DNA from: Candidatus Nomurabacteria bacterium
GTDB lineage: Bacteria; Patescibacteriota; Minisyncoccia; Phycocordibacterales; UBA5272
DNA: 64,000 nt
Assembly: GCA_040376695.1 (NCBI GenBank)
Contig: JBEIQD010000002.1
Span: 14,633-78,632, forward strand
Direction of reading: 5' to 3'
In this document: positions 1,076 through 62,848 of the stretch, piece after piece
Layout of the letters: the number at the start of each line of letters is the position of its first letter
How positions within the stretch are numbered: position 1 is the stretch's first letter
Notes under the pieces: model-generated
The model's input: the letters and a program-made list of their open reading frames with translations, nothing else
Told to the model about the DNA's origin: nothing
Database searches by the model: none
Translations under genes and position numbers: made by a program

Positions 1076-3118
1076 TTACTTGTTTTCCAAACGAATCTTT
1101 AACACCTTAATCTCATCACGAAGGATTGCGGCCGTCTCAAAATCAAGCGCTTTCACCGCTTCTTTCATTTGTTTCTCCTTGAGCTTGATAAGCTTATCAG
1201 GGTTTTTAGCAAACACTTTTGCGTCTATTTGAAGTTCTTCAGACACTGCCTTATCATGGCTACTCAACATACTTTCAGTGATATCTTGAATATTCTTTTT
1301 AATAGTCATTGGAGTAATACCGTGCTTTTTGTTGTAATCCTCCTGAATCGTACGACGACGATTTGTTTCAGCAATAGCTCGTTCAAGGGAACCTGTCATC
1401 ACATCAGCGTACAAAATAACGCGCCCGCGAACGTTACGAGCAGCACGACCAATTGTTTGGATAAGCGAAGTTTCTGAACGAAGAAAACCTTCTTTGTCGG
1501 CATCCAAGATTCCAATAAGTGTTACTTCTGGTAAGTCCAAACCTTCTCGAAGCAGGTTAACCCCAACAAGACAATCAAACTTTCCTTTACGGAACTCTGT
1601 AAGAATTTGAATTCTATCCATCGTCTTAATATCACTGTGAAGGTACTCCGCCTTCACTCCCTGCTCTTTCAAATACTCAGAAAGACTTTCCGCCATTTTC
1701 TTGGTTAGTGTTGTGGCAATAATGCGCCCTCCTAATTTAATATCAGCTACTGCTTCTTTAATGAAATGATGCACCTGTCCTTCGTATGAGCCTTTCGCTT
1801 CTACTGGTTTTACTTCAAGCACTGGATCAAGCAATCCTGTTGGGCGAATAATCTGTTCAATAATTGTCGCAGAATCTGCGCGCTCATATGCTCCAGGAGT
1901 AGCTGACACATAGATCACATCCGCAATCCTTTTTTCAAATTCTTCATATCGAAGTGGGCGGTTATCTTTCGCGCTCGGCAATCGAAAACCATATTCAACA
2001 AGTGTTTGCTTACGTGACTGATCTCCTGCATACATACCATGAAGCTGAGGTAATGTTACGTGAGATTCATCAATAATAGTAAGGAAATCTGGCTTTCCAT
2101 CCTTATCGTGTGGGAAATATTCCAAGAGTGTGTCCGGCGCCTCCCCTGGAAGTTTTCCTGAAAGATGACGAGAATAGTTTTCAACCCCCTGACAAAATCC
2201 AACTTCTTTAATCATGGCCACATCATAACGTGTACGACGCTTAAGACGTTCTGCTTCAAGGATTTTCCCTTCCTTATCAAATTCAGCCAAACGAGATTCC
2301 AATTCTTTTTGAATTGTTTCAACTGCGCGTTCGCGAGTTGGTACATCAGAAATAAAGTGCTTTGCAGGGAAAATATAATATTCGTCCACCACTGACAAAA
2401 GTTTCATTGATACTGGATCAACAGTTTGTAACCGAGAAATTTTTCCTCCCGCAATTTCTATTTGTAACATGAGTGTTTCAGAGATAGGCATGATATCAAT
2501 TCTGTTTCCTATCGCACGAAATGTTCCAGGTGAAAGATCAGCGTTGGTGCGTTCATAATAAATAGCCACGAACTTTTGCATGAGATCTACCTTTGAAGCA
2601 CTGTCTCCTACTGAGAGAATCATATTCTCTCGCTCATAATCTTTTGGAGATCCCAAACCGTAGATACAAGAAACTGACGCAACAATAATCACATCTTTTC
2701 GTGTAAGAAGCGCTTGTGTTGAAGCGTGGCGAAGTCTATCAATCTCCTCGTTAATTTGAGCATCCTTTTCAATATAGGTATCAGTCACTGGCATATACGC
2801 TTCTGGCTGATAGTAGTCGTAATAAGAAACGAAGTAGTGCACCGCAGCATCTGGAAAAAAAGTACGGAACTCTTGCGCAAGCTGAGCGGCGAGTGTTTTG
2901 TTATGAGCAATCACAAGCGTTGGTTTTTGGACCTGCTGAATAACGTTCGCAATCGTGAACGTCTTACCAGTTCCTGTGGCACCAAGGAGTGTCTGTTTTG
3001 CAGTCCCCTTTTTCAATCCCGCCACAAGTTCAGCAATTGCCTTAGGCTGATCCCCTGCTGGAGTAAAGCCTTTAATATCAAATACCCCCTTATCTCTGCG
3101 TGTATTCTTGCTTGACAT
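1076..3118 (-). CDS. uvrB: Excinuclease ABC subunit B
   Basis: 680 aa with Walker A GATGTGKTF, helicase motifs and a C-terminal UVR domain (ALDFETAAILRDEI). TGcTATAAT lies upstream. Confidence 0.95.
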   Translation of the reverse strand: MSSKNTRRDKGVFDIKGFTPAGDQPKAIAELVAGLKKGTAKQTLLGATGTGKTFTIANVIQQVQKPTLVIAHNKTLAAQLAQEFRTFFPDAAVHYFVSYYDYYQPEAYMPVTDTYIEKDAQINEEIDRLRHASTQALLTRKDVIIVASVSCIYGLGSPKDYERENMILSVGDSASKVDLMQKFVAIYYERTNADLSPGTFRAIGNRIDIMPISETLMLQIEIAGGKISRLQTVDPVSMKLLSVVDEYYIFPAKHFISDVPTRERAVETIQKELESRLAEFDKEGKILEAERLKRRTRYDVAMIKEVGFCQGVENYSRHLSGKLPGEAPDTLLEYFPHDKDGKPDFLTIIDESHVTLPQLHGMYAGDQSRKQTLVEYGFRLPSAKDNRPLRYEEFEKRIADVIYVSATPGAYERADSATIIEQIIRPTGLLDPVLEVKPVEAKGSYEGQVHHFIKEAVADIKLGGRIIATTLTKKMAESLSEYLKEQGVKAEYLHSDIKTMDRIQILTEFRKGKFDCLVGVNLLREGLDLPEVTLIGILDADKEGFLRSETSLIQTIGRAARNVRGRVILYADVMTGSLERAIAETNRRRTIQEDYNKKHGITPMTIKKNIQDITESMLSSHDKAVSEELQIDAKVFAKNPDKLIKLKEKQMKEAVKALDFETAAILRDEIKVLKIRLENK

Positions 3119-3189
3119 AGTTAAGATGTCATTATAGCATAAAATTGAAAGCTGTTTGAATAACCCCTTACAACACAGGAGACAAACCT

Positions 3190-3785: not shown

Positions 3786-5042
3786 TTATTTATAATACCG
3801 AGCAATAAAACTATTTTTAAATTCTATAAATCTTCCTTCTTGTAATGCTTTTCGTGCGTCATCAACAAGTGCTGTTAAGAATTTTAGATTATGAATTGAA
3901 GCTAATGTTGCAGCAAGCATTTCGTCTGCTCTGAATAAATGTGAGAGGTAACTTTTTGTATACCCGTGTGTGTACCACGTCGCATCCTCCGATACTGGAG
4001 ACATGTCATCTTTATACTTTGCGTTAGTAATATTAATACGTCCATCAAGGGTGTATAGTGTTCCATTTCTTCCGATACGAGTTGGTGCAACACAATCAAA
4101 TGTATCGATACCGTTTTCAATAGCGAGTAACATATCAAGCGGTTCCCCGATACCGAGAAGATGTCGAGGCTTTCCGACTGGCAATTCCTCACACACCCAT
4201 CGCACTGCCGTTGCCATGTCGTCTTTAGTAAAACTTCCACCGATACCGTATCCATCAAAATCCATGTCGCCAAGTATTTTTGCAGACTCACGACGAAGTT
4301 CTTCATACGCACCACCTTGCACGACTCCAAAAAGCGCCTGTATCTCGCCTGTTGCCGCTGATACACCTAATCGTTTATGTTCATCGAGACTACGCTTTGC
4401 CCATCTATGAGTTCTATCCATCGCCTCTTTCTGATACGCGATAGGAGCAAGCGGGCTAGTACATTCATCAAATGCGAAAAAAATATCTGCTCCAAGATTA
4501 TGTTGTATCTGCATACTACGTTCAGGAGTGAACCTATGTTTACTTCCATCAATGACTGATTTAAATGTCACCCCCTCTTCATCAATGTGTGCCATTTTTT
4601 CATGAATACTTTCTTGCGCGATTTCTTTTTCTTCACGCTTACTCAACGTAGATTCATACGCTGAAATTTCTTCACTTGTTGCGATCTTACTTACTCCGTG
4701 CCCAAGAGCTTGTCCTAATGAGAACACTTGGAATCCTCCTGAATCAGTTACAGAAGGGAGAACTTTGCCATCTTTTTTCCAGCCCATCATGTTTGGAAAA
4801 CCTCCATGCTTGGCAACTATTTCATCCCCTGGTTCAAGATAGAGATGATACGTATTTGCAAGAACAGCCTGAGCGCCGACAGCGTCACGAATCTGCTCAG
4901 CTGTGAGGGCTTTAACTGTGGCTTTTGTACCAACAGTAATAAAGGCAGGTGTTTGTATATCTCCGTGTGGAGTATGAATAACCCCCGACCGAGCAAGTGG
5001 AGCCTCTTTAGAAGAGTGCGTTATCTCGAAAGAAAATGACAT
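3786..5042 (-). CDS. tgt: Queuine tRNA-ribosyltransferase (tRNA-guanine transglycosylase)
   Basis: FITVGTKATVK, FQVFSLG and DCVAPTRIGRNGTLYT motifs. Start moved from the ORF-track 5087 to the ATG at 5042 (MSFSFEI...), which has TAGTAT 8 nt upstream (leaderless). About 60 aa C-terminal extension relative to typical Tgt. Confidence 0.8.
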   Translation of the reverse strand: MSFSFEITHSSKEAPLARSGVIHTPHGDIQTPAFITVGTKATVKALTAEQIRDAVGAQAVLANTYHLYLEPGDEIVAKHGGFPNMMGWKKDGKVLPSVTDSGGFQVFSLGQALGHGVSKIATSEEISAYESTLSKREEKEIAQESIHEKMAHIDEEGVTFKSVIDGSKHRFTPERSMQIQHNLGADIFFAFDECTSPLAPIAYQKEAMDRTHRWAKRSLDEHKRLGVSAATGEIQALFGVVQGGAYEELRRESAKILGDMDFDGYGIGGSFTKDDMATAVRWVCEELPVGKPRHLLGIGEPLDMLLAIENGIDTFDCVAPTRIGRNGTLYTLDGRINITNAKYKDDMSPVSEDATWYTHGYTKSYLSHLFRADEMLAATLASIHNLKFLTALVDDARKALQEGRFIEFKNSFIARYYK

Positions 5043-5223
5043 TAGTATGTATACTACCATATCTTGAAAATCGAACACTCTAAACAAGCAGAACCTGCAA
5101 AGGTGTTCCGTCGAAATGTGCTCATTTCGACGCGATTTTTACGTTTAAAAATCGCCTACAAAAGTAGACTTCTCCCACTAAAACAAGTAGTATGCGGGCA
5201 GTTGAACTTTAAAAGGAGCTAGC

Positions 5224-5406
5224 ATGCAACTACTAGAAAAGCTCTTCCACAGGGTTTTAATCTGCGGACAGTGGATATTTGCAATCGTGTTGTTTTGCAT
5301 CATGCTTGTAATTGCCTGCATCCCCGCAGGAATCTTCCTTGTTTGGTGTCTCACCAACAAAGAAAACCCGTTTCACTTTGTTACCAAATCAGAGTGGCAT
5401 CCTTAA
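5224..5406 (+). CDS. Small membrane protein (60 aa)
   Basis: SD aaaAGGAGctagcATG. Two predicted TM helices. Sits directly upstream of the HD hydrolase gene. Confidence 0.3.
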   Translation: MQLLEKLFHRVLICGQWIFAIVLFCIMLVIACIPAGIFLVWCLTNKENPFHFVTKSEWHP

Positions 5407-5431
5407 CCTTCCATCTCTAAGGAGAACTTCC

Positions 5432-21164: not shown

Positions 21165-21202
21165 ATACGATTAGTATACAGCAGTGAGTAGATGTTAAGA
21201 GT

Positions 21203-21241
21203 GGATATGAAAACGGCGCCTCAGGCGCCGTTTTCATATCC
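21203..21241 (-). terminator. Long hairpin terminator after gyrA
   Basis: GGATATGAAAACGGCGCCtcaGGCGCCGTTTTCATATCC. Confidence 0.5.
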
Positions 21242-21248
21242 ACATCTT

Positions 21249-41789: not shown

Positions 41790-42971
41790 ATGATTCTCCT
41801 TGCGATTGAAACAAGTTGTGACGAAACGGCAGTGTCGATCGTAAAACGACTGCGAGGTAAAAATGTACGCTTTGAAGTCCTTTCTCACAAGGTTCTTTCT
41901 CAAGTAGATCTCCATGCACAATATGGAGGCGTCTTCCCAGCTCTCGCAAAAAGAGAACACTCGAAAGCGTTGACTCAATTAATTGCTGAATGTTTGGATG
42001 AAGCAGACCTCCTCACTGAACGTACAAACACTCACCATATTCCAAATACAGAACGTAAGAAATTAGAAACACTTCTTGAGCGAGAACCTGAAATGTTAGC
42101 AGCAATGAAAATACTCTTTGAAGGAATACAGAAACCTGCTATTGATGCTATTGCTGTGACATCAGGACCAGGACTTGAGCCTGCGCTATGGGTAGGTGTG
42201 AGCGGGGCACTTGCTCTTCATATGGTGTGGGATATTCCTCTTTACCCTATCAATCACATGGAAGGACATGTTGTGGCAAGTGTACTTTCACATGTTGATG
42301 GGAAGTATGAAATCCCAGAACTAGACGTTCCAGCTGTTGCACTTCTCATTTCAGGAGGACACACAGAACTCGTTCGTATTCCTAAATGGAGATCTTACAA
42401 AGTAATTGGGAAGACACGAGATGATGCAGTTGGCGAGGCTTTTGATAAGGCAGCAAGAATGCTTGATCTCCCATATCCAGGCGGACCTCAGATTTCAAAA
42501 CTTGCAGAACACGCCCGCAAGGAAGGACTCGTTGTAGATGAAGACTTACGGCTTCCGCGCCCTATGATTAATAGTGGAGATCTAGCTTTCTCTTTTAGTG
42601 GTATAAAGACGGCAGTTCTTACTCGAGTTAACAAACGTAAACCTATCGATGACTCTACGAAAAAAATGCTGGCTCTTGAATTTGAAAATGCAGTAACTGA
42701 TGTATTGGTTTCCAAAGTAAAACAAGCCATGTATGAGACTCGCGCAAAGACACTCATTGTTGGCGGCGGAGTAAGCGCAAATACGCACATTAGACACGCA
42801 TTAAAGAATCTCGCTGAGAATGATGGATTTACTCTTTTTGTTCCCGATCATGCGCTATCAACCGATAACGGACTCATGATTGCTTCCACTGGATTACTTC
42901 ATATAGCTACAGACGTTAAACCTAAAGTAAAAATTGTTGCGAACGGATCTTGGTCAATCGAAGACTGTTAA
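41790..42971 (+). CDS. tsaD: tRNA N6-adenosine threonylcarbamoyltransferase
   Basis: MILLAIETSCDETAVSIV..., Kae1/YgjD family. About 50 aa of insertions relative to typical TsaD. Confidence 0.9.
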   Translation: MILLAIETSCDETAVSIVKRLRGKNVRFEVLSHKVLSQVDLHAQYGGVFPALAKREHSKALTQLIAECLDEADLLTERTNTHHIPNTERKKLETLLEREPEMLAAMKILFEGIQKPAIDAIAVTSGPGLEPALWVGVSGALALHMVWDIPLYPINHMEGHVVASVLSHVDGKYEIPELDVPAVALLISGGHTELVRIPKWRSYKVIGKTRDDAVGEAFDKAARMLDLPYPGGPQISKLAEHARKEGLVVDEDLRLPRPMINSGDLAFSFSGIKTAVLTRVNKRKPIDDSTKKMLALEFENAVTDVLVSKVKQAMYETRAKTLIVGGGVSANTHIRHALKNLAENDGFTLFVPDHALSTDNGLMIASTGLLHIATDVKPKVKIVANGSWSIEDC

Positions 42972-42975
42972 TCGA

Positions 42976-43019
42976 GGCAAAAGAAAAACGATATCTTACG
43001 ATATCGTTTTTCTTTTGCC
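42976..43019. repeat. 44 nt perfect AT-rich palindrome (copy A), bidirectional terminator-like
   Basis: GGCAAAAGAAAAACGATATCttacGATATCGTTTTTCTTTTGCC. A 36 nt core recurs at 56284-56319. Confidence 0.6.
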
Positions 43020-43251
43020 TCGCAAACCGTGGTGGTGAGCGTGGCATGCTCCAAAATAAGTGCCTTATGTGAGCGCGGTCGCTCACCGCAACGAATTGCG
43101 AATGAGCACCACCTCTCTAGTGTACAACCTCTGCTTTCTAGTTTCAAGGCTTAATTAAAAAACGTAAAGGGCCATCCGAAGATGACCCAATGCGCAGGCA
43201 TTCATTTATTTTGTGGGCACGCCAATTGGCGCTCACCCTATAATTGTACCC
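43020..43251 (-). other. GC-rich hairpin-dense 3' region downstream of the 43252 gene (structured RNA candidate, copy A)
   Basis: Contains a UUCG-tetraloop hairpin (GGGTCATCttcgGATGGCCC), GTGAGCG/CGCTCAC and GGTGGTG/CACCACC helices. Architecture parallels 56320-56542. Confidence 0.3.
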
Positions 43252-45465
43252 CTATTTTGCAGGACTCGCAAGAAGCTGCTTAATGTACGCATCCACTTGG
43301 GCTGTATACTCTGGGCTTGTTTGCTTAAGTTCATTCAAGAGCTGGATTGCAAGCGTTATCTGCTTGGTGCTCACTAAAGCACTCAGAATATCAGCATCAA
43401 ACGGCACAGTCTGTCCTTTTGCCGTAAGATATGCTCGTGCTTCACTCCATTTGTTTGCATACACTGAGGCAAGCAAATATATCTTTGCTGCATCCCCATA
43501 TGCTGGAGCACTATCGAACGTCTCTCGAGCAAGAGCATAAGCTTCATTTGTCTTCCCAGTAAGAAGATATGCTCTCACGAGATCAAATGACACTAGTTGC
43601 TTTTTAGGAGCAATCATATGTGCTTGAGTTAATACTTTTTCCGCAGAAACACCATCTCCAATACCGTTGTAAAACATTCCATAAATTGAAAGCATTCGTA
43701 CATCATTCTTGTGAGCCTCGTATGAATTTTCAATATCCTTACGAGCTCCTTCAATCATAGAATTAATTGCCTGCACTGACTTTAGCTTGTCTTCTTCTGG
43801 AACATCCTCTGGAATAGTAACCTGTGCAATTCTTACTGTTGTCTGAAGATATTGTTCACGAGCTTCTTCAGAACCTACTGTATGCAATGCAATTGCTTTC
43901 TCAAATGCCGCCTGTTGTACTTTTACAGCATCTGCAAATGACATTGTTTGAATAAGTCGATTAATATCTAAACCTTTAACAAGATTCTTATTCACCATGA
44001 GAGGTCTATACACAAGGACGTACATCGTAGCTATGAGAAGAATTCCAATCACGGGTAGATATAACATATTCATCTGATCATCACTCACCGCTTTACCTCC
44101 CTGAACTTCTCCACGAGCTCCCGTTTTAAATGCGATATACGCAAGCAAGAAGAAGAATAAGATATAGCTTATAAGGTTATCAAACACGAATATATTGTGA
44201 ACAAAATATCCAGCTAACGCGCCCGTGAGAATAGCTTTCTCTCTGAAAGGCATATCATTCTTTTTTCTCCACATAAGCCAAAGCGCTACAACGTAGAGTG
44301 AGAGATATGCAATCAAACCGAGAGCTCCCGCAGCAACCAACCAGTCGAAGAACACATTGTGTGATCGATCGTACCATGATTCAAGATTCCACATTTTCTC
44401 TGGAAGAAACTTACTTGCATAAATATAACTGAAATTATCCTGTCCATATCCAAGTATTGGTTTTTCCTTAAATGCTTCATAGCTAATTTTCCAGATAGAC
44501 AAACGACTCATCCCTGTTAAATCTGTTGGGGAAATACTTGCGAAACGAGCAAGTGTTGGTGATGATTGTATAAATGAAGAATCTTTAAATGCAAAGACAG
44601 AACCAACAATAACTACGGCGGCTATCATAGTTCCAACAAGAACTCTTCTAGCTTTCCCTTTTTCAGCTAATGCAATAAGCCCGAGTGTCATAAAACCACC
44701 AACCAGAAGTCCGATTTGTGTCCCTCGGGTTCCGGTGTAGAAAAGCGCAATGAGGTTAAGTACTATGAGTGTCGGATAGAGCCAAGTCTTCTTTCCACCT
44801 TTCTCTTCTGACCAACGCAAAGCAAGAATGAAAATAAACATCAAACAGTAGATAGCAAAGTACGCAGAGTTTCCAAGTGTCGCATCTAGTCGATTTTCAC
44901 TCATATGAATTGGGAACGCTGCTGAAAACTTTGCAGCAACTCCTGGAAGGAGCTGTGAGAATATATACCCACTTGCTCCAAGTAATTGTCCGTACCCGAA
45001 TACAAGCACTGCGATATTTGAGGCGATGAGAGCCTTAAACATTTTTCCGTATTCCGCAGTTGTGCGAAGCATGGCTGAAAGTACCACAAAGTAAGCAAAG
45101 AGATGAAGGTGCCCAACAAATCCTTCCATGCGCTCAAAGTTACTCCAGATACTCTTAAACGAATCAACTCCAAAGATATCTGCAAGGAGGAGAATTGCCA
45201 TAAAAACAGCGTACGCAATAAGAAGTGGTGACTTTCGAATATTCAAACGATAACTTGCATCTTTAAGAGCAAGGATTACCCACCCGAAGAATGCTATTTC
45301 AACCAAGAACCTAAACACCATATTCTTACCGGAAATAAATGGGAAATACATACCGGATGTTCCTCGATTAAGAAGATCCAATGAATGCCCACTGGCCACA
45401 TAGAGCGCGACAAACGGAATAATCAAAAGACACCCCCACACCACTTTCTTCAAAATACTTTGCAT
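43252..45465 (-). CDS. O-antigen ligase-like (Wzy_C) polytopic membrane protein with C-terminal TPR repeats
   Basis: 737 aa, more than 10 TM helices with a GTRGTQIGLLVG motif, followed by a soluble TPR-like helical repeat domain. Confidence 0.45.
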   Translation of the reverse strand: MQSILKKVVWGCLLIIPFVALYVASGHSLDLLNRGTSGMYFPFISGKNMVFRFLVEIAFFGWVILALKDASYRLNIRKSPLLIAYAVFMAILLLADIFGVDSFKSIWSNFERMEGFVGHLHLFAYFVVLSAMLRTTAEYGKMFKALIASNIAVLVFGYGQLLGASGYIFSQLLPGVAAKFSAAFPIHMSENRLDATLGNSAYFAIYCLMFIFILALRWSEEKGGKKTWLYPTLIVLNLIALFYTGTRGTQIGLLVGGFMTLGLIALAEKGKARRVLVGTMIAAVVIVGSVFAFKDSSFIQSSPTLARFASISPTDLTGMSRLSIWKISYEAFKEKPILGYGQDNFSYIYASKFLPEKMWNLESWYDRSHNVFFDWLVAAGALGLIAYLSLYVVALWLMWRKKNDMPFREKAILTGALAGYFVHNIFVFDNLISYILFFFLLAYIAFKTGARGEVQGGKAVSDDQMNMLYLPVIGILLIATMYVLVYRPLMVNKNLVKGLDINRLIQTMSFADAVKVQQAAFEKAIALHTVGSEEAREQYLQTTVRIAQVTIPEDVPEEDKLKSVQAINSMIEGARKDIENSYEAHKNDVRMLSIYGMFYNGIGDGVSAEKVLTQAHMIAPKKQLVSFDLVRAYLLTGKTNEAYALARETFDSAPAYGDAAKIYLLASVYANKWSEARAYLTAKGQTVPFDADILSALVSTKQITLAIQLLNELKQTSPEYTAQVDAYIKQLLASPAK

Positions 45466-54484: not shown

Positions 54485-56239
54485 TTATTCTTCTTGTAGA
54501 AGTTTCCGTAGAACACCCTCTTCAACCTCTCTTCTTTTCTGTTCAACTTCTTCTCTACGTGTTTCTATGTTTGCAGCGCTTGCTGGCGGGATTACTTCTC
54601 GTTCATTCATGGCCTTTGCAAGAGCGTCTTTAAGGGAAACTGCTGGCTTATCATCAAATGAAGCTGGTTGTCTCTCTTGTTGTGGTGCAGGATTTGGTCG
54701 TGTATCTCGCCTAGCATCATCACGTCTGTCACCTTGTCGCCTCTCGTCAGTTCTCCTTTCTGTTTTTCGGTTATCATTTTGTGAATAGCTTGGAGTTCTT
54801 GATTCCTGTCTATATTCAGTTCTTTGCTGAGGCTTATGCTCAGATCTTTGTTCATTTCTTGGAAGCGGAGTGTCATTGCGTATCTCTCGAACCTTCACGA
54901 CCGCCTGGTCTTGCTTTGCAGCTTGTGGAACTTCTTTTATTATCGGCTTATAAAACTCTGTTACTTCGTTAGTCACATCATCTACTGGTTTACCGTAGGT
55001 TGCCCGAGAATAGGCAATAATTGCCTGAGCATGAGAATGTGCAGGACGAACGATTGGATCAAGCGTGTGGGCAGAAAATGGCTTAGAACCCACCCCGTCA
55101 ATCATAAGACGAAGATAGATTTGATACGCCGAAAGATTCACGATGTCATCCATAATGAAATATGGCGCAAACTCCTTTTCAAAAGCTTCAGCGTCAGTTG
55201 CTCCCACTCGGAAGGTAATCATCGTACCCACGTTTCCAAAGACCGCAGCCTTCACTTCATCTTCCATTTGCTCAATATACTGATGGGCAACGGTGAGCGC
55301 AAGATTATACTTTCGTGACTCTGAAAGAATAGATGCAAACGATTCATTGGCGAAGTTCTGAAACTCATCCACATAGAAATAAAATGGAGGAAGTTTTTCA
55401 AGTTCGTACGGCCCAGCGTCTGCTCGAGACATTGCAGCTAAATATATTTTTGTAATCAAAAGAGAACCGATAAGGTTTGCATTTCCTTCTCCCACTTTTC
55501 CTTTTGAAAGATTCACAATAAGAATCTTTTTGTTATCCATGATGTCTCGGAGATCAAACGATGTCTTCTGTTGTCCGATGATGTTACGGATGAGAGGGTT
55601 TGAGATAAACTGCCCAATCTTATTTTGAATTCCAGGCGCTGCCTCTTGTTGATACTTATCTCCTGCTTTCGCATACTCCTCTTCCCAGAATGATTTTACG
55701 GAAGGGTCTTTAACATTACTCACAATAAATTTTCTGTACTCTTTATCGTTAAGCATTCTGTTTACGCCGAGCAATGACTGTCCTTCGTTTTCAAGAAGAG
55801 CAAGGATAATGTTATTTAAAATATATTGAATACGATCAGAGAATCGTTCTTCACCGAACACTTTCTTAAACGCTGCCATAAGACCGTTTGCAACCAAGTG
55901 ACGCTTAGATGTTTCAACTTTTTCAAGCACATTCAACCCCATTGGGTGTTCACTATCAAACGGTGCAAAATAAATAACGTCTTTAATACGAGACTCAGGA
56001 ATAAAGTCGAGCAACTTTTCTGCCATAGAGCCATGAGGGTCAATCACGCACAAACCTTCTCCGTTTTGAATATCCTGCACAGCAAGATTCTCAAGAAGAG
56101 TCGATTTACCCATACCTGTCTTTCCAATGATATAGGTATGACGAGTTCGATCACGCTCTTTAATCCCAAACGTGATTTGTTTGTTACGAAAATCAACCTT
56201 TCCTATATAAGTTACTTTTTCCTTGTGAGGATCTGACAT
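54485..56239 (-). CDS. Soluble VirD4/TraD-like (type IV coupling protein family) P-loop ATPase with charged low-complexity C-terminal tail
   Basis: HTYIIGKTGMGKSTLLENL..VIDPHGS; Walker B FYFYVDEFQNF; LTVAHQ. No N-terminal TM segment. C-terminal 130 aa rich in R/D/E/Q. Start at 56239 (MSDPHKEK) with TATACT 8 nt upstream. Confidence 0.5.
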   Translation of the reverse strand: MSDPHKEKVTYIGKVDFRNKQITFGIKERDRTRHTYIIGKTGMGKSTLLENLAVQDIQNGEGLCVIDPHGSMAEKLLDFIPESRIKDVIYFAPFDSEHPMGLNVLEKVETSKRHLVANGLMAAFKKVFGEERFSDRIQYILNNIILALLENEGQSLLGVNRMLNDKEYRKFIVSNVKDPSVKSFWEEEYAKAGDKYQQEAAPGIQNKIGQFISNPLIRNIIGQQKTSFDLRDIMDNKKILIVNLSKGKVGEGNANLIGSLLITKIYLAAMSRADAGPYELEKLPPFYFYVDEFQNFANESFASILSESRKYNLALTVAHQYIEQMEDEVKAAVFGNVGTMITFRVGATDAEAFEKEFAPYFIMDDIVNLSAYQIYLRLMIDGVGSKPFSAHTLDPIVRPAHSHAQAIIAYSRATYGKPVDDVTNEVTEFYKPIIKEVPQAAKQDQAVVKVREIRNDTPLPRNEQRSEHKPQQRTEYRQESRTPSYSQNDNRKTERRTDERRQGDRRDDARRDTRPNPAPQQERQPASFDDKPAVSLKDALAKAMNEREVIPPASAANIETRREEVEQKRREVEEGVLRKLLQEE

Positions 56240-56283
56240 AATAAATAGTATACAGGTAATACCATAGGGGTGACAGTGGATGT

Positions 56284-56319
56284 GCAAAAGAAAAACGCTA
56301 TCTTACGATAACGTTTTTG
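56284..56319. repeat. AT-rich palindrome copy B (one mismatch relative to copy A)
   Basis: GCAAAAGAAAAACGCTATCttacGATAACGTTTTTG. Confidence 0.6.
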
Positions 56320-56340
56320 TGGTGAGTGAGCCGCTGGAAC

Positions 56341-56457
56341 TTACTGAGCAGCGGCTGGAGGTGTGGCAACAGGTTTGGCTGGTGACAGTGGCGGGAGAGG
56401 GAAAGACGCACCACCTCCCTTGTGACTTGTCATACCCGCGAACATATTACATGGCAT
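56341..56457 (-). CDS. Small Pro/Ala-rich peptide (38 aa) embedded in structured region B
   Basis: Strong SD TAAGGAGaacacaATG. Product MPCNMFAGMTSHKGGGASFPLPPLSPAKPVATPPAAAQ. GC-rich. Confidence 0.3.
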   Translation of the reverse strand: MPCNMFAGMTSHKGGGASFPLPPLSPAKPVATPPAAAQ

Positions 56458-56542
56458 TGTGTTCTCCTTAGAACTAAAAGCAGACTGTCTGCTTCTTTCG
56501 TTTATTACACTACCATTTTTTACAGAAAAATCAAGCCCCACC

Positions 56543-57736
56543 CTACTGTGCCTTCAAAGCTGCTGGAGTATATTTATTTGAAGGGTCCCACAACATCCAT
56601 GAGTTAATACCTAACTTCTCCCCTGCGCTAATCTGCGCACGCACCATTTCAGCTGTATATGTCGCCCCCATATCAAAATCCTGATACCAGGGGCGAAGCT
56701 TCAAGATGAGCGAACTCGTTGATTGTCCTGTAGAAGAAGCTACTGCATAGGCAATGTCTCGAGCGCCACCCATAGAATACGTGATGATTGGGCCTGGATG
56801 AGCCGCTGGATTATCATATCCTGCTGTGCCTTTGTAGAAATGAGACGGGTACACCATTGGCGCTACATAATCAAAATATTTCAGTGCGTCCCCTAAGTCC
56901 TGTCCAAGCGTTTTAGTTTCGTTTGAATTAGTTGTGATAATTCCGAACACATCTCCTGAAATCGGAATACCGATTGGACTAAATGCATCATGAAGATACT
57001 TATAAAACTCCTGCACGATTCCTCTCTTATCTGTTAAACCTCGTTCACCTGAAACAGGGAATCGCATAGACTTTAAATCTCCATCTGTTGGGAATCTAAT
57101 ATAATCGTAATTAAGCTCATCAAATCCGCGACCGTGTGTCTCTTTACCAAGATCAACCAAATACTTCCACATATCTTTTGAACCAGTATCTACCCATGGT
57201 TCCCCTTTTCTGTCTCGCCAAATAGTGCCTGTAGTAATATTAGTTACCGCTCGCTCTGGATGAAGTTTTACATATGCAGGATCTTGGAATGCTGCAATAC
57301 GAGCAATTACATAAATATTTCTTGCATGTAAATCCTCTATCAACGTATCTAAATCTTTAATTCTTCCATCCCAGCTTAGAATTCCTGTATTATCTTTAAC
57401 GTCAATAATAACGGCATTGAGTTCTGTTTCATCAATAAGTTTAAAAAGTTTTTCACGGATTGAAGGAGTGCCCGCTACCCATGATGACACATATATCGCT
57501 TTAACTTCTTTTGGGGTTTTGATGTGAGTTACAGCAACCGGAGCTGATGATGCTTCTTTAGTTTCTTTTCCTGTTGGTTCAGAAAGAAAATCACCTACGG
57601 TTGATGTTCCACTTCCTTCCTTTGCATATGCTTCTGTACCAAGTTCCTTTGAAAAAGAGAAGTGTTTATAGCCGCTGTTAGCAACCCAAAGAAAACCAAA
57701 GACTATTACTGCTGCAATACCGAGCGACGCCCTCAT
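56543..57736 (-). CDS. Putative glycoside-hydrolase-like TIM-barrel protein (GHL/DUF4015-like), secreted
   Basis: Signal anchor; VKAIYVSSWVAGTPSIREKLFKLIDETELNAVIIDVKDNTG pattern. Confidence 0.35.
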   Translation of the reverse strand: MRASLGIAAVIVFGFLWVANSGYKHFSFSKELGTEAYAKEGSGTSTVGDFLSEPTGKETKEASSAPVAVTHIKTPKEVKAIYVSSWVAGTPSIREKLFKLIDETELNAVIIDVKDNTGILSWDGRIKDLDTLIEDLHARNIYVIARIAAFQDPAYVKLHPERAVTNITTGTIWRDRKGEPWVDTGSKDMWKYLVDLGKETHGRGFDELNYDYIRFPTDGDLKSMRFPVSGERGLTDKRGIVQEFYKYLHDAFSPIGIPISGDVFGIITTNSNETKTLGQDLGDALKYFDYVAPMVYPSHFYKGTAGYDNPAAHPGPIITYSMGGARDIAYAVASSTGQSTSSLILKLRPWYQDFDMGATYTAEMVRAQISAGEKLGINSWMLWDPSNKYTPAALKAQ

Positions 57737-60718: not shown

Positions 60719-60876
60719 TCATTCAAAATGAAAAGCGTAGATGAATCCCCCTTTACAGAGAGACTCGCTACACTTTCCATTTTTACATTACAGAATGAAG
60801 AGCTTAATGATTCCAATTACCCGAAAGTAACTGAAATCATTAAACTATCCATTACACACATTGTGATTTTTATCTT

Positions 60877-60892
60877 TCTTTTGTCACACTCT
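60877..60892. repeat. 3' arm of the 16S processing stem (perfect 16 nt complement of 62667-62682)
   Basis: CTTTTGTCACACTCTA here versus TAGAGTGTGACAAAAG at 62667-62682. Flanks extend the complementarity to about 25 nt. Confidence 0.6.
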
Positions 60893-61019
60893 AGCGCTTG
60901 CGCGACTTTTGCATACGTTTCGCTGTAGCGCGAACAGTGTTAAAGGATCACTGTTAAGTCCTTATCTAAAACTTAAATAACCGACAAGATTCGTACACCC
61001 TAATAAATTAGGTATGTAG

Positions 61020-62660
<1,641 letters not shown>

Positions 62661-62666
62661 ATTTAA

Positions 62667-62682
62667 TAGAGTGTGACAAAAG
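62667..62682. repeat. 5' arm of the 16S processing stem
   Basis: TAGAGTGTGACAAAAG, 6 nt upstream of the mature 16S 5' end. Confidence 0.6.
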
Positions 62683-62848
62683 AAAAACAAAAAAATGCAC
62701 AATGTGTGTAATGTATGAAGCGTCACCAGAAAACGTTGTTATGTCATTGAGACCTTATCAGACTCTCCGACCGTTTCCTGTAGCTTCTATTTCATTTTCA
62801 AATGACTACGATAACCACTCACATATTTCTACCTGAGAAGTGACCCCC

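Follow-up and report, generated by a model that had tools for sequence, protein, structure and literature searches.

Two predicted tandem small RNA genes with covarying complementarity, and a duplicated terminator, beside tsaD in Candidatus Nomurabacteria

The stretch of Candidatus Nomurabacteria DNA analysed here (64,000 nt of contig JBEIQD010000002.1, referred to as the window) contains two intergenic regions, copy A and copy B, that share a short repeat. Copy A, 280 nt long, lies 3' of a minus-strand Wzy_C/TPR gene and also 3' of the plus-strand tsaD gene, and is therefore located between convergent genes. Copy B, 303 nt long, is located between two minus-strand genes, with the DUF4015 gene on its 5' side and a TrwB/VirD4-like ATPase gene on the other. 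The initial annotation had correctly placed both copies 3' of minus-strand genes. It had also described a repeat of 36 nt with 2 mismatches, GCAAAAGAAAAACG[A/C]TATCTTACGATA[T/A]CGTTTTT; the repeat is real and non-random, with no match in 100 dinucleotide-preserving shuffles, and its length is 35 nt. The further sequences listed with it are all present, namely GTGAGCG/CGCTCAC in copy A, GCCGCTG/CAGCGGC in copy B and GCACCACCTC in both (43107-43116 and 56408-56417). The coordinates of the features are collected in Table 1.

Table 1. Genes and predicted features of copy A and copy B (window coordinates)
Feature	Coordinates	Strand	Remarks
tsaD gene	41790-42971	+	stop codon ends at 42971
35-mer repeat	42977-43011; 56284-56318		2 mismatches
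Copy A palindrome, putative D-RNA terminator	42973-43022; arms 42973-42995 / 43000-43022		arms of 23 nt each, 100% complementary; 4-nt loop
D-RNA gene	42977-43112	-	136 nt with terminator; R1 153.3 bits
D-RNA 5' tail	43103-43112	-	
D-RNA P1	43089-43102 with 43019-43031	-	
D-RNA P2	43080-43087 with 43034-43041	-	GGUGAGCG with CGCUCACC
D-RNA P3	43071-43074 with 43048-43051	-	GCUC with GAGC
D-RNA apical hairpin	43056-43068	-	AUAAG-GCA-CUUAU
D-RNA apex, site complementary to U-RNA linker	43053-43065	-	AGGCACUUAUUUU
D-RNA sigma-70-type promoter	43119-43147	-	TTGAAA-17-TACACT; putative start G at 43112
U-RNA gene	43159-43239	-	~81 nt; R2 81.7 bits
U-RNA long hairpin, UUCG loop, then U-run	43163-43194	-	
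U-RNA single-stranded linker	43196-43212	-	AAAAUAAAUGAAUGCCU
U-RNA 5' hairpin	43213-43238	-	
U-RNA sigma-70-type promoter	43243-43271	-	TTGCGA-17-TACAAT; overlaps last Wzy_C/TPR codons
Wzy_C/TPR gene	43252-45465	-	
TrwB/VirD4-like ATPase gene	54485-56239	-	
Copy B terminator hairpin and U-tail	56284-56318	-	preceded by GCUCACUCACCAC (56319-56331)
Copy B interior	56341-56469	-	RBS AAGGAG 56464-56469 and 38-aa ORF 56341-56457
DUF4015 gene	56543-57736	-	

On the minus strand, the 35-mer reads AAAAACGnUAUC-GUAA-GAUAnCGUUUUUCUUUUGC, a stem-loop followed by a U-run, and both copies thus have the sequence form of an intrinsic terminator at a 3' end. In copy A, the 35-mer is the inner part of a palindrome that starts 2 nt past the tsaD stop codon. 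This palindrome is perfect, as had been claimed, but it extends over 50 nt rather than 44 nt. Read on the minus strand it gives a 23-bp stem, a GUAA loop and a UUUUUCUUUU tail, and an upstream A-tract mirrors the U-tract, completing the full palindrome. Because the A-tract and T-tract are symmetric, the palindrome probably also terminates transcription of tsaD on the plus strand. An earlier proposal of a two-way terminator with a GUAA loop on the minus strand is therefore consistent with copy A, whereas copy B has the form of a terminator in one direction only: its stem comprises 12 bp, its tail is the same as that of copy A, and one U.G pair is valid on the minus strand only. The motif GTGGTGAG, said to follow the palindrome in both copies, does so directly in copy B (56319-56326) but stands 10 nt beyond the palindrome in copy A (43033-43040). 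Bidirectional Rho-independent terminators between convergent genes likewise have symmetric A-tract, hairpin and U-tract on both strands; copy A differs from them in its unusually long (23 bp), AT-rich stem and in that its inner 35 nt are copied to locus B, where they are one-directional. A consensus terminator scan skipped the palindrome, owing to the few G-C pairs in its stem, and flagged only the U-RNA hairpin (43188-43169).

The palindrome had also been considered as a symmetric protein-binding site. Among relatives, however, the hairpin sequence varies while the pairing and the A-tract and U-tract are retained, including G.U pairs that are possible on the minus strand only, and all 9 terminator pairs in the D-RNA model show compensatory changes. 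Varying sequence with kept pairing favours an RNA terminator over a fixed protein-binding site, and we read the palindrome as the intrinsic terminator of a minus-strand RNA, termed D-RNA. The working strand is thus the minus strand and not the plus strand assumed before. In one relative (L002, 11230-11290, minus strand), a second long inverted repeat, AACAAGGGGTACCCTTGTA...TACAAGGGTACCCCTTGTT, is found between the D-RNA terminator and tsaD, and the convergent genes may use separate terminators there. By its sequence, the 35-mer repeat is ordinary, a duplicated terminator. It was this duplication that had drawn attention to the locus; the main signal adjoins it in copy A, on the opposite strand.

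Regions encoding TsaD homologs were retrieved from collections of genomes, metagenomes and assemblies. Together with the window, this gave sixteen Nomurabacteria/Paceibacteria-like loci with a D element that adjoins tsaD or, in L015, is at most 1.1 kb away; two of them, L013 and L010, are nearly the same. The covariance model of D-RNA, R1, matched 13 homologs at E <= 3e-6, plus 3 more. In L001, the flanks are about 85% identical to the window, and the segment corresponding to 42977-43103 is nearly identical. A MAFFT alignment of the D-RNA sequences gave one long hairpin followed by the terminator, with compensatory changes at 16 of 39 pairs. When the alignment of 13 sequences was fitted to the model, 24 of 39 pairs were compensatory and 95.6% of the cells were paired, a result reached by 0 of 500 shuffles; in controls with the pairing partners slid by 1-3 columns, pairing was 34-50%. 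Helices P2 and P3 were 100% paired, with three compensatory pairs. The hairpin measures about 90-95 nt from P1 to P4 without the terminator, with hardly any variation in its internal loops and apex. At four positions, G.U occurs more often than any other pair, and since it would be an A.C mismatch on the opposite strand, this places D-RNA on the minus strand. In 11 of 14 comparisons, conservation of the D core exceeded that of the tsaD coding DNA (e.g., 96.8 versus 86.3% and 89.5 versus 71.9%).

Two helices proposed earlier for copy A did not survive this comparison. The local hairpin GTGAGCG/CGCTCAC lacks compensatory changes, and its pairing is disrupted in 8 cells; its bases take part in the covarying long-range helices P2 and P3. 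The closing helix GGTGGTG...CACCACC is not kept in L001, although that locus is 85% identical. Upstream of D-RNA, a script placed a -10 box of the form TAnAnT no more than about 7 nt from the model start in 14 of 16 loci; in L007 and L094, where it picked a more distant box, one is visible by eye at the expected place. The -35 box is located 16-18 nt upstream in most loci.

We also considered whether the copy A sequence is coding. The ORFs 42968-43147 and 42922-43086 extend across the palindrome, and relatives conserve none of the reading frames, so this reading was rejected. Nor is D-RNA a riboswitch or other cis-acting leader, because in 15 of 16 loci it is followed by its terminator and the convergent tsaD, and not by a gene on the same strand. 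The remaining locus is L015, from a more distant relative, where D-RNA (5272-5407, minus strand) does not adjoin tsaD, lacks a clear terminator and lies directly upstream of murB (4292-5320, minus strand), the start codon of which is overlapped by the 3' strand of P1. In this relative D-RNA may be cis-regulatory rather than trans-acting. A search of viral contigs with the D core pattern gave no match. In L094, from a Candidatus Nomurabacteria MAG, a gene of the 23S_rRNA_IVP / bAvd family, which accompanies diversity-generating retroelements, lies just upstream of tsaD (2619-2975, plus strand).

A second conserved block, termed U-RNA, was found on the same strand within the 330 nt upstream of D-RNA. 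It begins with a 5' hairpin, continues through a single-stranded linker, CAAAAUAAAUGAAUGCCUG, to a long hairpin whose loop is GNRA or UUCG, and ends in a U-run. The linker is A/U-rich and 17-19 nt long. Both hairpins were supported by RNAalifold, with 13 of 22 pairs compensatory. The covariance model of U-RNA, R2, finds it in 16 of 16 D-RNA loci, always upstream of D-RNA and on the same strand; the presence in the region of discrete structured RNAs conserved in relatives, which the initial annotation had anticipated, is thus borne out for both U and D. In the window, the -10 box of the U-RNA promoter follows directly after the Wzy_C stop codon, and the -35 box is inside the final codons. The same promoter arrangement was found in 13 of 16 loci by script and in L001, L006 and L009 by eye. 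In L015, the gene upstream of U-RNA is queA instead of Wzy_C, and the U-RNA promoter is near consensus (TTGACT-17-TATACT). The 5' hairpin and linker of U-RNA (GGUGAGCG...CCCAC-AAAAUAA) resemble the 5' half of D-RNA (43069-43087, minus strand), which in its local fold reads GGUGAGCG-ACCG-CGCUCAC-AUAA; U-RNA may have arisen as a copy of the D-RNA 5' strand.

U and D could also be separate domains of a single longer transcript, if transcription from the U promoter read through a leaky U hairpin. The U-run after this hairpin is weak in L002, L014 and L015, so a U-D co-transcript is possible where the spacer is short, and five loci have a spacer of just 29-51 nt. Large folded RNAs also typically have GNRA or UUCG loops such as that of the second U hairpin. 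However, D-RNA has its own conserved -35 and -10 boxes, and the spacer is unconserved, ranging from 29 to 239 nt in most loci and reaching 427 nt in L008, 570 nt in L001 and 1554 nt in L005. The gap in L001 holds an ORF for a predicted membrane protein of 117 aa (2794-3147, plus strand), and the D promoter overlaps its 3' end. A gene or long gap between U and D in these three loci points to separate transcription units, and we consider a single RNA, in which the complementarity described below would be an intramolecular helix, quite improbable. The L008 gap (~1730-2156) reads at its end like the L001 membrane-protein gene.

The U-RNA linker is complementary to the D-RNA apex over 13 bp in two helices, with a bulge of 4-6 nt in U; U UGCCU faces D AGGCA, and U AAAAUAAA faces D YUUAUUUU. 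In a concatenated alignment of 13 distinct rows, hand-built to fit the pairing, 95.9% of the cells at the 13 pairs were paired and 5 pairs were compensatory; 0 of 500 shuffles reached this result, and slid controls had 0-1 compensatory pairs. An A-U pair is changed to G-C in L002, L005, L006 and L007, a U-A pair to C-G in L014, L015, L093 and L095, and an A-U pair to U-A in L093, and two further compensatory pairs are found in L015. The independent changes are few, and some of the compensatory states may go back to one inherited change each. The complementarity is thus kept by compensatory change, as in pairs of RNAs that act by base pairing, and U.G wobbles in five rows suggest pairing at the RNA level rather than a DNA inverted repeat. 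Cognate U:D duplexes were predicted at -8 to -14 kcal/mol compared with -4 to -6 kcal/mol for shuffled linkers; the duplex is A/U-rich and its energy is modest, and that of L011 is weak (-7.9 kcal/mol, equalled by 6% of shuffles). Apart from the complement of U itself, the D apex is the only fitting site for the U linker in the 64-kb window, and no further targets were found there. The dimer predicted by RNAcofold includes the linker/apex helix for the window, L010 and L014. Extended complementarity between the U 5' hairpin and the 3' strand of D P2, which RNAcofold predicts in the window, is lost in L015 and was not retained as a candidate.

The complementarity might instead be a leftover of common descent, with U and D acting independently as structured small RNAs on protein or mRNA targets of their own. 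A U derived from the D 5' strand would be complementary to the D 3' strand even if no duplex formed in the cell. This would fit the likeness, seen by eye, between the U 5' hairpin and linker and the D 5' half, and also the finding that U and D from close relatives pair about as well in non-cognate as in cognate combinations. However, five linker/apex pairs have changed on both RNAs in different lineages and are still paired, which descent alone does not predict. Moreover, L015 loses the wider complementarity and keeps the linker/apex pairing through its two extra compensatory changes. We therefore regard independent action as unlikely.

We propose, as the probable reading of copy A, that it carries two tandem minus-strand small RNA genes, each transcribed independently, whose products form a dedicated RNA-RNA pair. 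The comparison shows the conservation, both folds, the strand, the promoter and terminator motifs, the co-occurrence of U and D and their covariation; we infer transcription of the two RNAs from the sequence signals, and likewise infer their pairing in the cell and its effect. In the proposed mechanism, U-RNA would start at the promoter overlapping the end of the Wzy_C/TPR gene. D-RNA would start from its own promoter, 46 nt downstream of the U-RNA end, and would end at the 50-nt palindrome, which would also serve the convergent tsaD. Pairing of the U linker with the D apex would open the 5-bp apical hairpin of D-RNA and cover its conserved loop. Either U would then mask the surface through which D acts, or D would sequester the seed of U.

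Among described systems, the closest functional parallel would be a small RNA and its sponge or anti-sRNA; examples are RosA, the partner of RoxS/FsrA in Bacillus subtilis, and SroC, the partner of GcvB in enterobacteria. As in those pairs, a single-stranded seed on one RNA would face an RNA that is not an mRNA, through a short imperfect duplex. In contrast to them, the U and D genes are tandem neighbours that have been conserved together across divergence at the family or order level, and D, the RNA that U would bind, is a structured RNA with high conservation of its own. Type I toxin-antitoxin loci whose genes do not overlap (e.g., tisB/istR-1 and zor/orz) similarly comprise neighbouring, separately transcribed RNAs with limited complementarity. 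However, the U and D genes are in tandem and not divergent, L010, L011 and L014 have lost the AUG of D, and U has different reading frames in different relatives. As judged by eye, no ORF is conserved across the U or D alignments, and the locus is therefore not of the type I toxin-antitoxin kind.

An Rfam scan had been suggested as a check, and no Rfam 15 family fits U or D. With the 4227 models of Rfam 15 at the gathering threshold, only the 16S rRNA and 4 tRNAs were found in the window. Permissive scans of 42900-43300 and 56200-56600 gave far-sub-threshold matches to the terminator hairpins (miRNA precursors and ctRNA_p42d) and one weak, sub-threshold match to Ysr49 over the U-RNA region (E 0.064), which is at chance level; permissive scans of four relatives gave nothing on U or D. 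ARAGORN found the four tRNAs elsewhere in the window and no tRNA or tmRNA in either copy region. We noticed that CAUAAGGCA and GGAGCAUGCC in D and AUAAAUGAAUGCCUG in U recall what we take to be motifs of E. coli M1 RNA. The likeness to RNase P was put down to coincidence: the order of the motifs differs, that of U is in a variable bulge, no P4-like sequence is found, and there is no Rfam match.

D-RNA might nevertheless have diverged strongly from one of the universal housekeeping RNAs, of which only SRP 4.5S RNA resembles it in size and hairpin shape. At about 95 nt, D forms a long irregular hairpin whose internal loops close to the apex hardly vary; each relative examined has one per locus, and D is mostly more conserved than the tsaD coding DNA. 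Both SRP 4.5S RNA and 6S RNA are, like D, long imperfect hairpins with invariant internal loops. However, the models of SRP, 6S, RNase P and tmRNA gave no match at E up to 10 (in a search space of 401 nt), and ARAGORN found no tmRNA. The SRP consensus has a GNRA tetraloop flanked by a symmetric loop in domain IV, which also carries a conserved asymmetric loop. D lacks the defining SRP loops and the tetraloop; its apex is a GCA triloop on an A-U stem. Compared with 6S RNA, D lacks the central bubble and, at about 95 nt without the terminator, is too small and too regular. A divergent housekeeping RNA of this universal kind thus seems highly improbable.

In the literature searched, no description was found of small RNAs of the U or D type, or of small RNAs in these lineages. 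Judged from their sequences, U and D would each represent a new small RNA family; covariation supports both well, and there is evidence that their complementarity coevolves. Tentatively, we raise the further possibility that together they form an obligate two-part module specific to Nomurabacteria/Paceibacteria-like CPR bacteria. D might be a lineage-specific housekeeping RNA held in an RNA-protein complex through its invariant apical loops, and U a dedicated antisense partner that switches this surface. If so, the module would represent an RNA-on-RNA control that is undescribed for any conserved structured bacterial RNA. These lineages have tiny genomes and consist of uncultured organisms; confirmation of the pairing would provide a defined and experimentally tractable RNA-RNA module among them. 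The covariance models R1 and R2 can be used for annotating their genomes.

Copy B was initially taken to form one structured element with copy A, with the same helix order. However, R1 scores 23.9 bits on copy B, where it matches the terminator only, compared with 153.3 bits on copy A, and the interiors of the two copies do not align (z = -0.9). From its sequence, copy B seems to duplicate the 3' end of the D-RNA gene, less 17 nt, and the preceding GCUCAC(U)CACCAC was probably copied from the same 3' end. The interior of copy B contains an RBS and a 38-aa ORF, which has no Pfam match. In the closest relative (L088, the DUF4015 protein of which is 90% identical), the same RBS and terminator surround a 74-aa ORF. 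The 125-nt interior in the window aligns with this ORF in a patchy manner (z = 2.8, reached by 6 of 500 shuffles). The interior is probably the remnant of a small gene, corresponding to the 74-aa ORF of L088, that has decayed by deletion. We did not retain the 38-aa ORF as a genuine small protein: its RBS is good, but L088 has a different ORF at this position and the interiors align only in patches. The interior also holds GGAGGTGGTGC (56408-56418), which resembles the D-RNA 5' end and, on the remnant reading, would have arisen within the remnant. Copy B would then be a copy of the D terminator that now ends a decaying small ORF upstream of the TrwB/VirD4-like gene.

The alternative, that A and B are copies of one repeated element, structured or mobile, in which the helix architecture is conserved, or that the palindrome is a symmetric protein site, draws on the 35-mer and the GCTCAC(T)CACCAC common to both copies, and on a motif, CAC[T/A]AG[A/G]GAGGTGGTGC, which is identical at 15 of 17 nt and is found at distances of 96 and 90 nt in A and B, respectively. 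This motif is missing from the L001 ortholog of A and from the L088 ortholog of B, R1 finds only the terminator of B, and the two interiors are unrelated. Unlike an interspersed repeat or MITE, the element is present in 2 copies in 64 kb that share only 35 nt plus about 13 nt. A search for the hairpin core in 185,579 species-representative genomes returned one locus (L001, MAG nzgw467) in single copy, and among relatives it is the pairing of the hairpin that is conserved and not its sequence. The A-type hairpin is present in the more distant L001, L007 and L002, and B is present only in the window and L088; it was not found in L084, L089 and L091, where the DUF4015 and TrwB-like genes are 60-100 nt apart. 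Taken with these findings, a shared element or protein site has very little probability, and we retain the duplicated terminator as the explanation of the repeat.

The slot between the DUF4015 and TrwB/VirD4-like genes is hypervariable (window 56240-56542; L084 5219-5305; L086 3571-4581; L088 1941-2338; L089 4230-4290; L091 4261-4357). In L086, it holds a GC-rich ORF of 270 aa; the slot ORFs of L088 and L086 have no Pfam match.

The closest protein relatives of the window are found in MAGs of Candidatus Paceibacterota, Nomurabacteria or Parcubacteria. Its 16S rRNA gene (61030-62667, minus strand) is bacterial and carries inserts: it has a length of 1638 nt compared with 1533 nt for the model, with 55 nt inserted close to the 5' end, and contains an inverted repeat whose arms, 61421-61453 / 61458-61490, are 33 nt long. 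Long inverted repeats that look like a processing stem flank the gene (60847-60893 and 62667-62716). Elsewhere in the window, at 21201-21243, there is another perfect palindrome, with 21-nt arms separated by 1 nt (GTGGATATGAAAACGGCGCCT / AGGCGCCGTTTTCATATCCAC).
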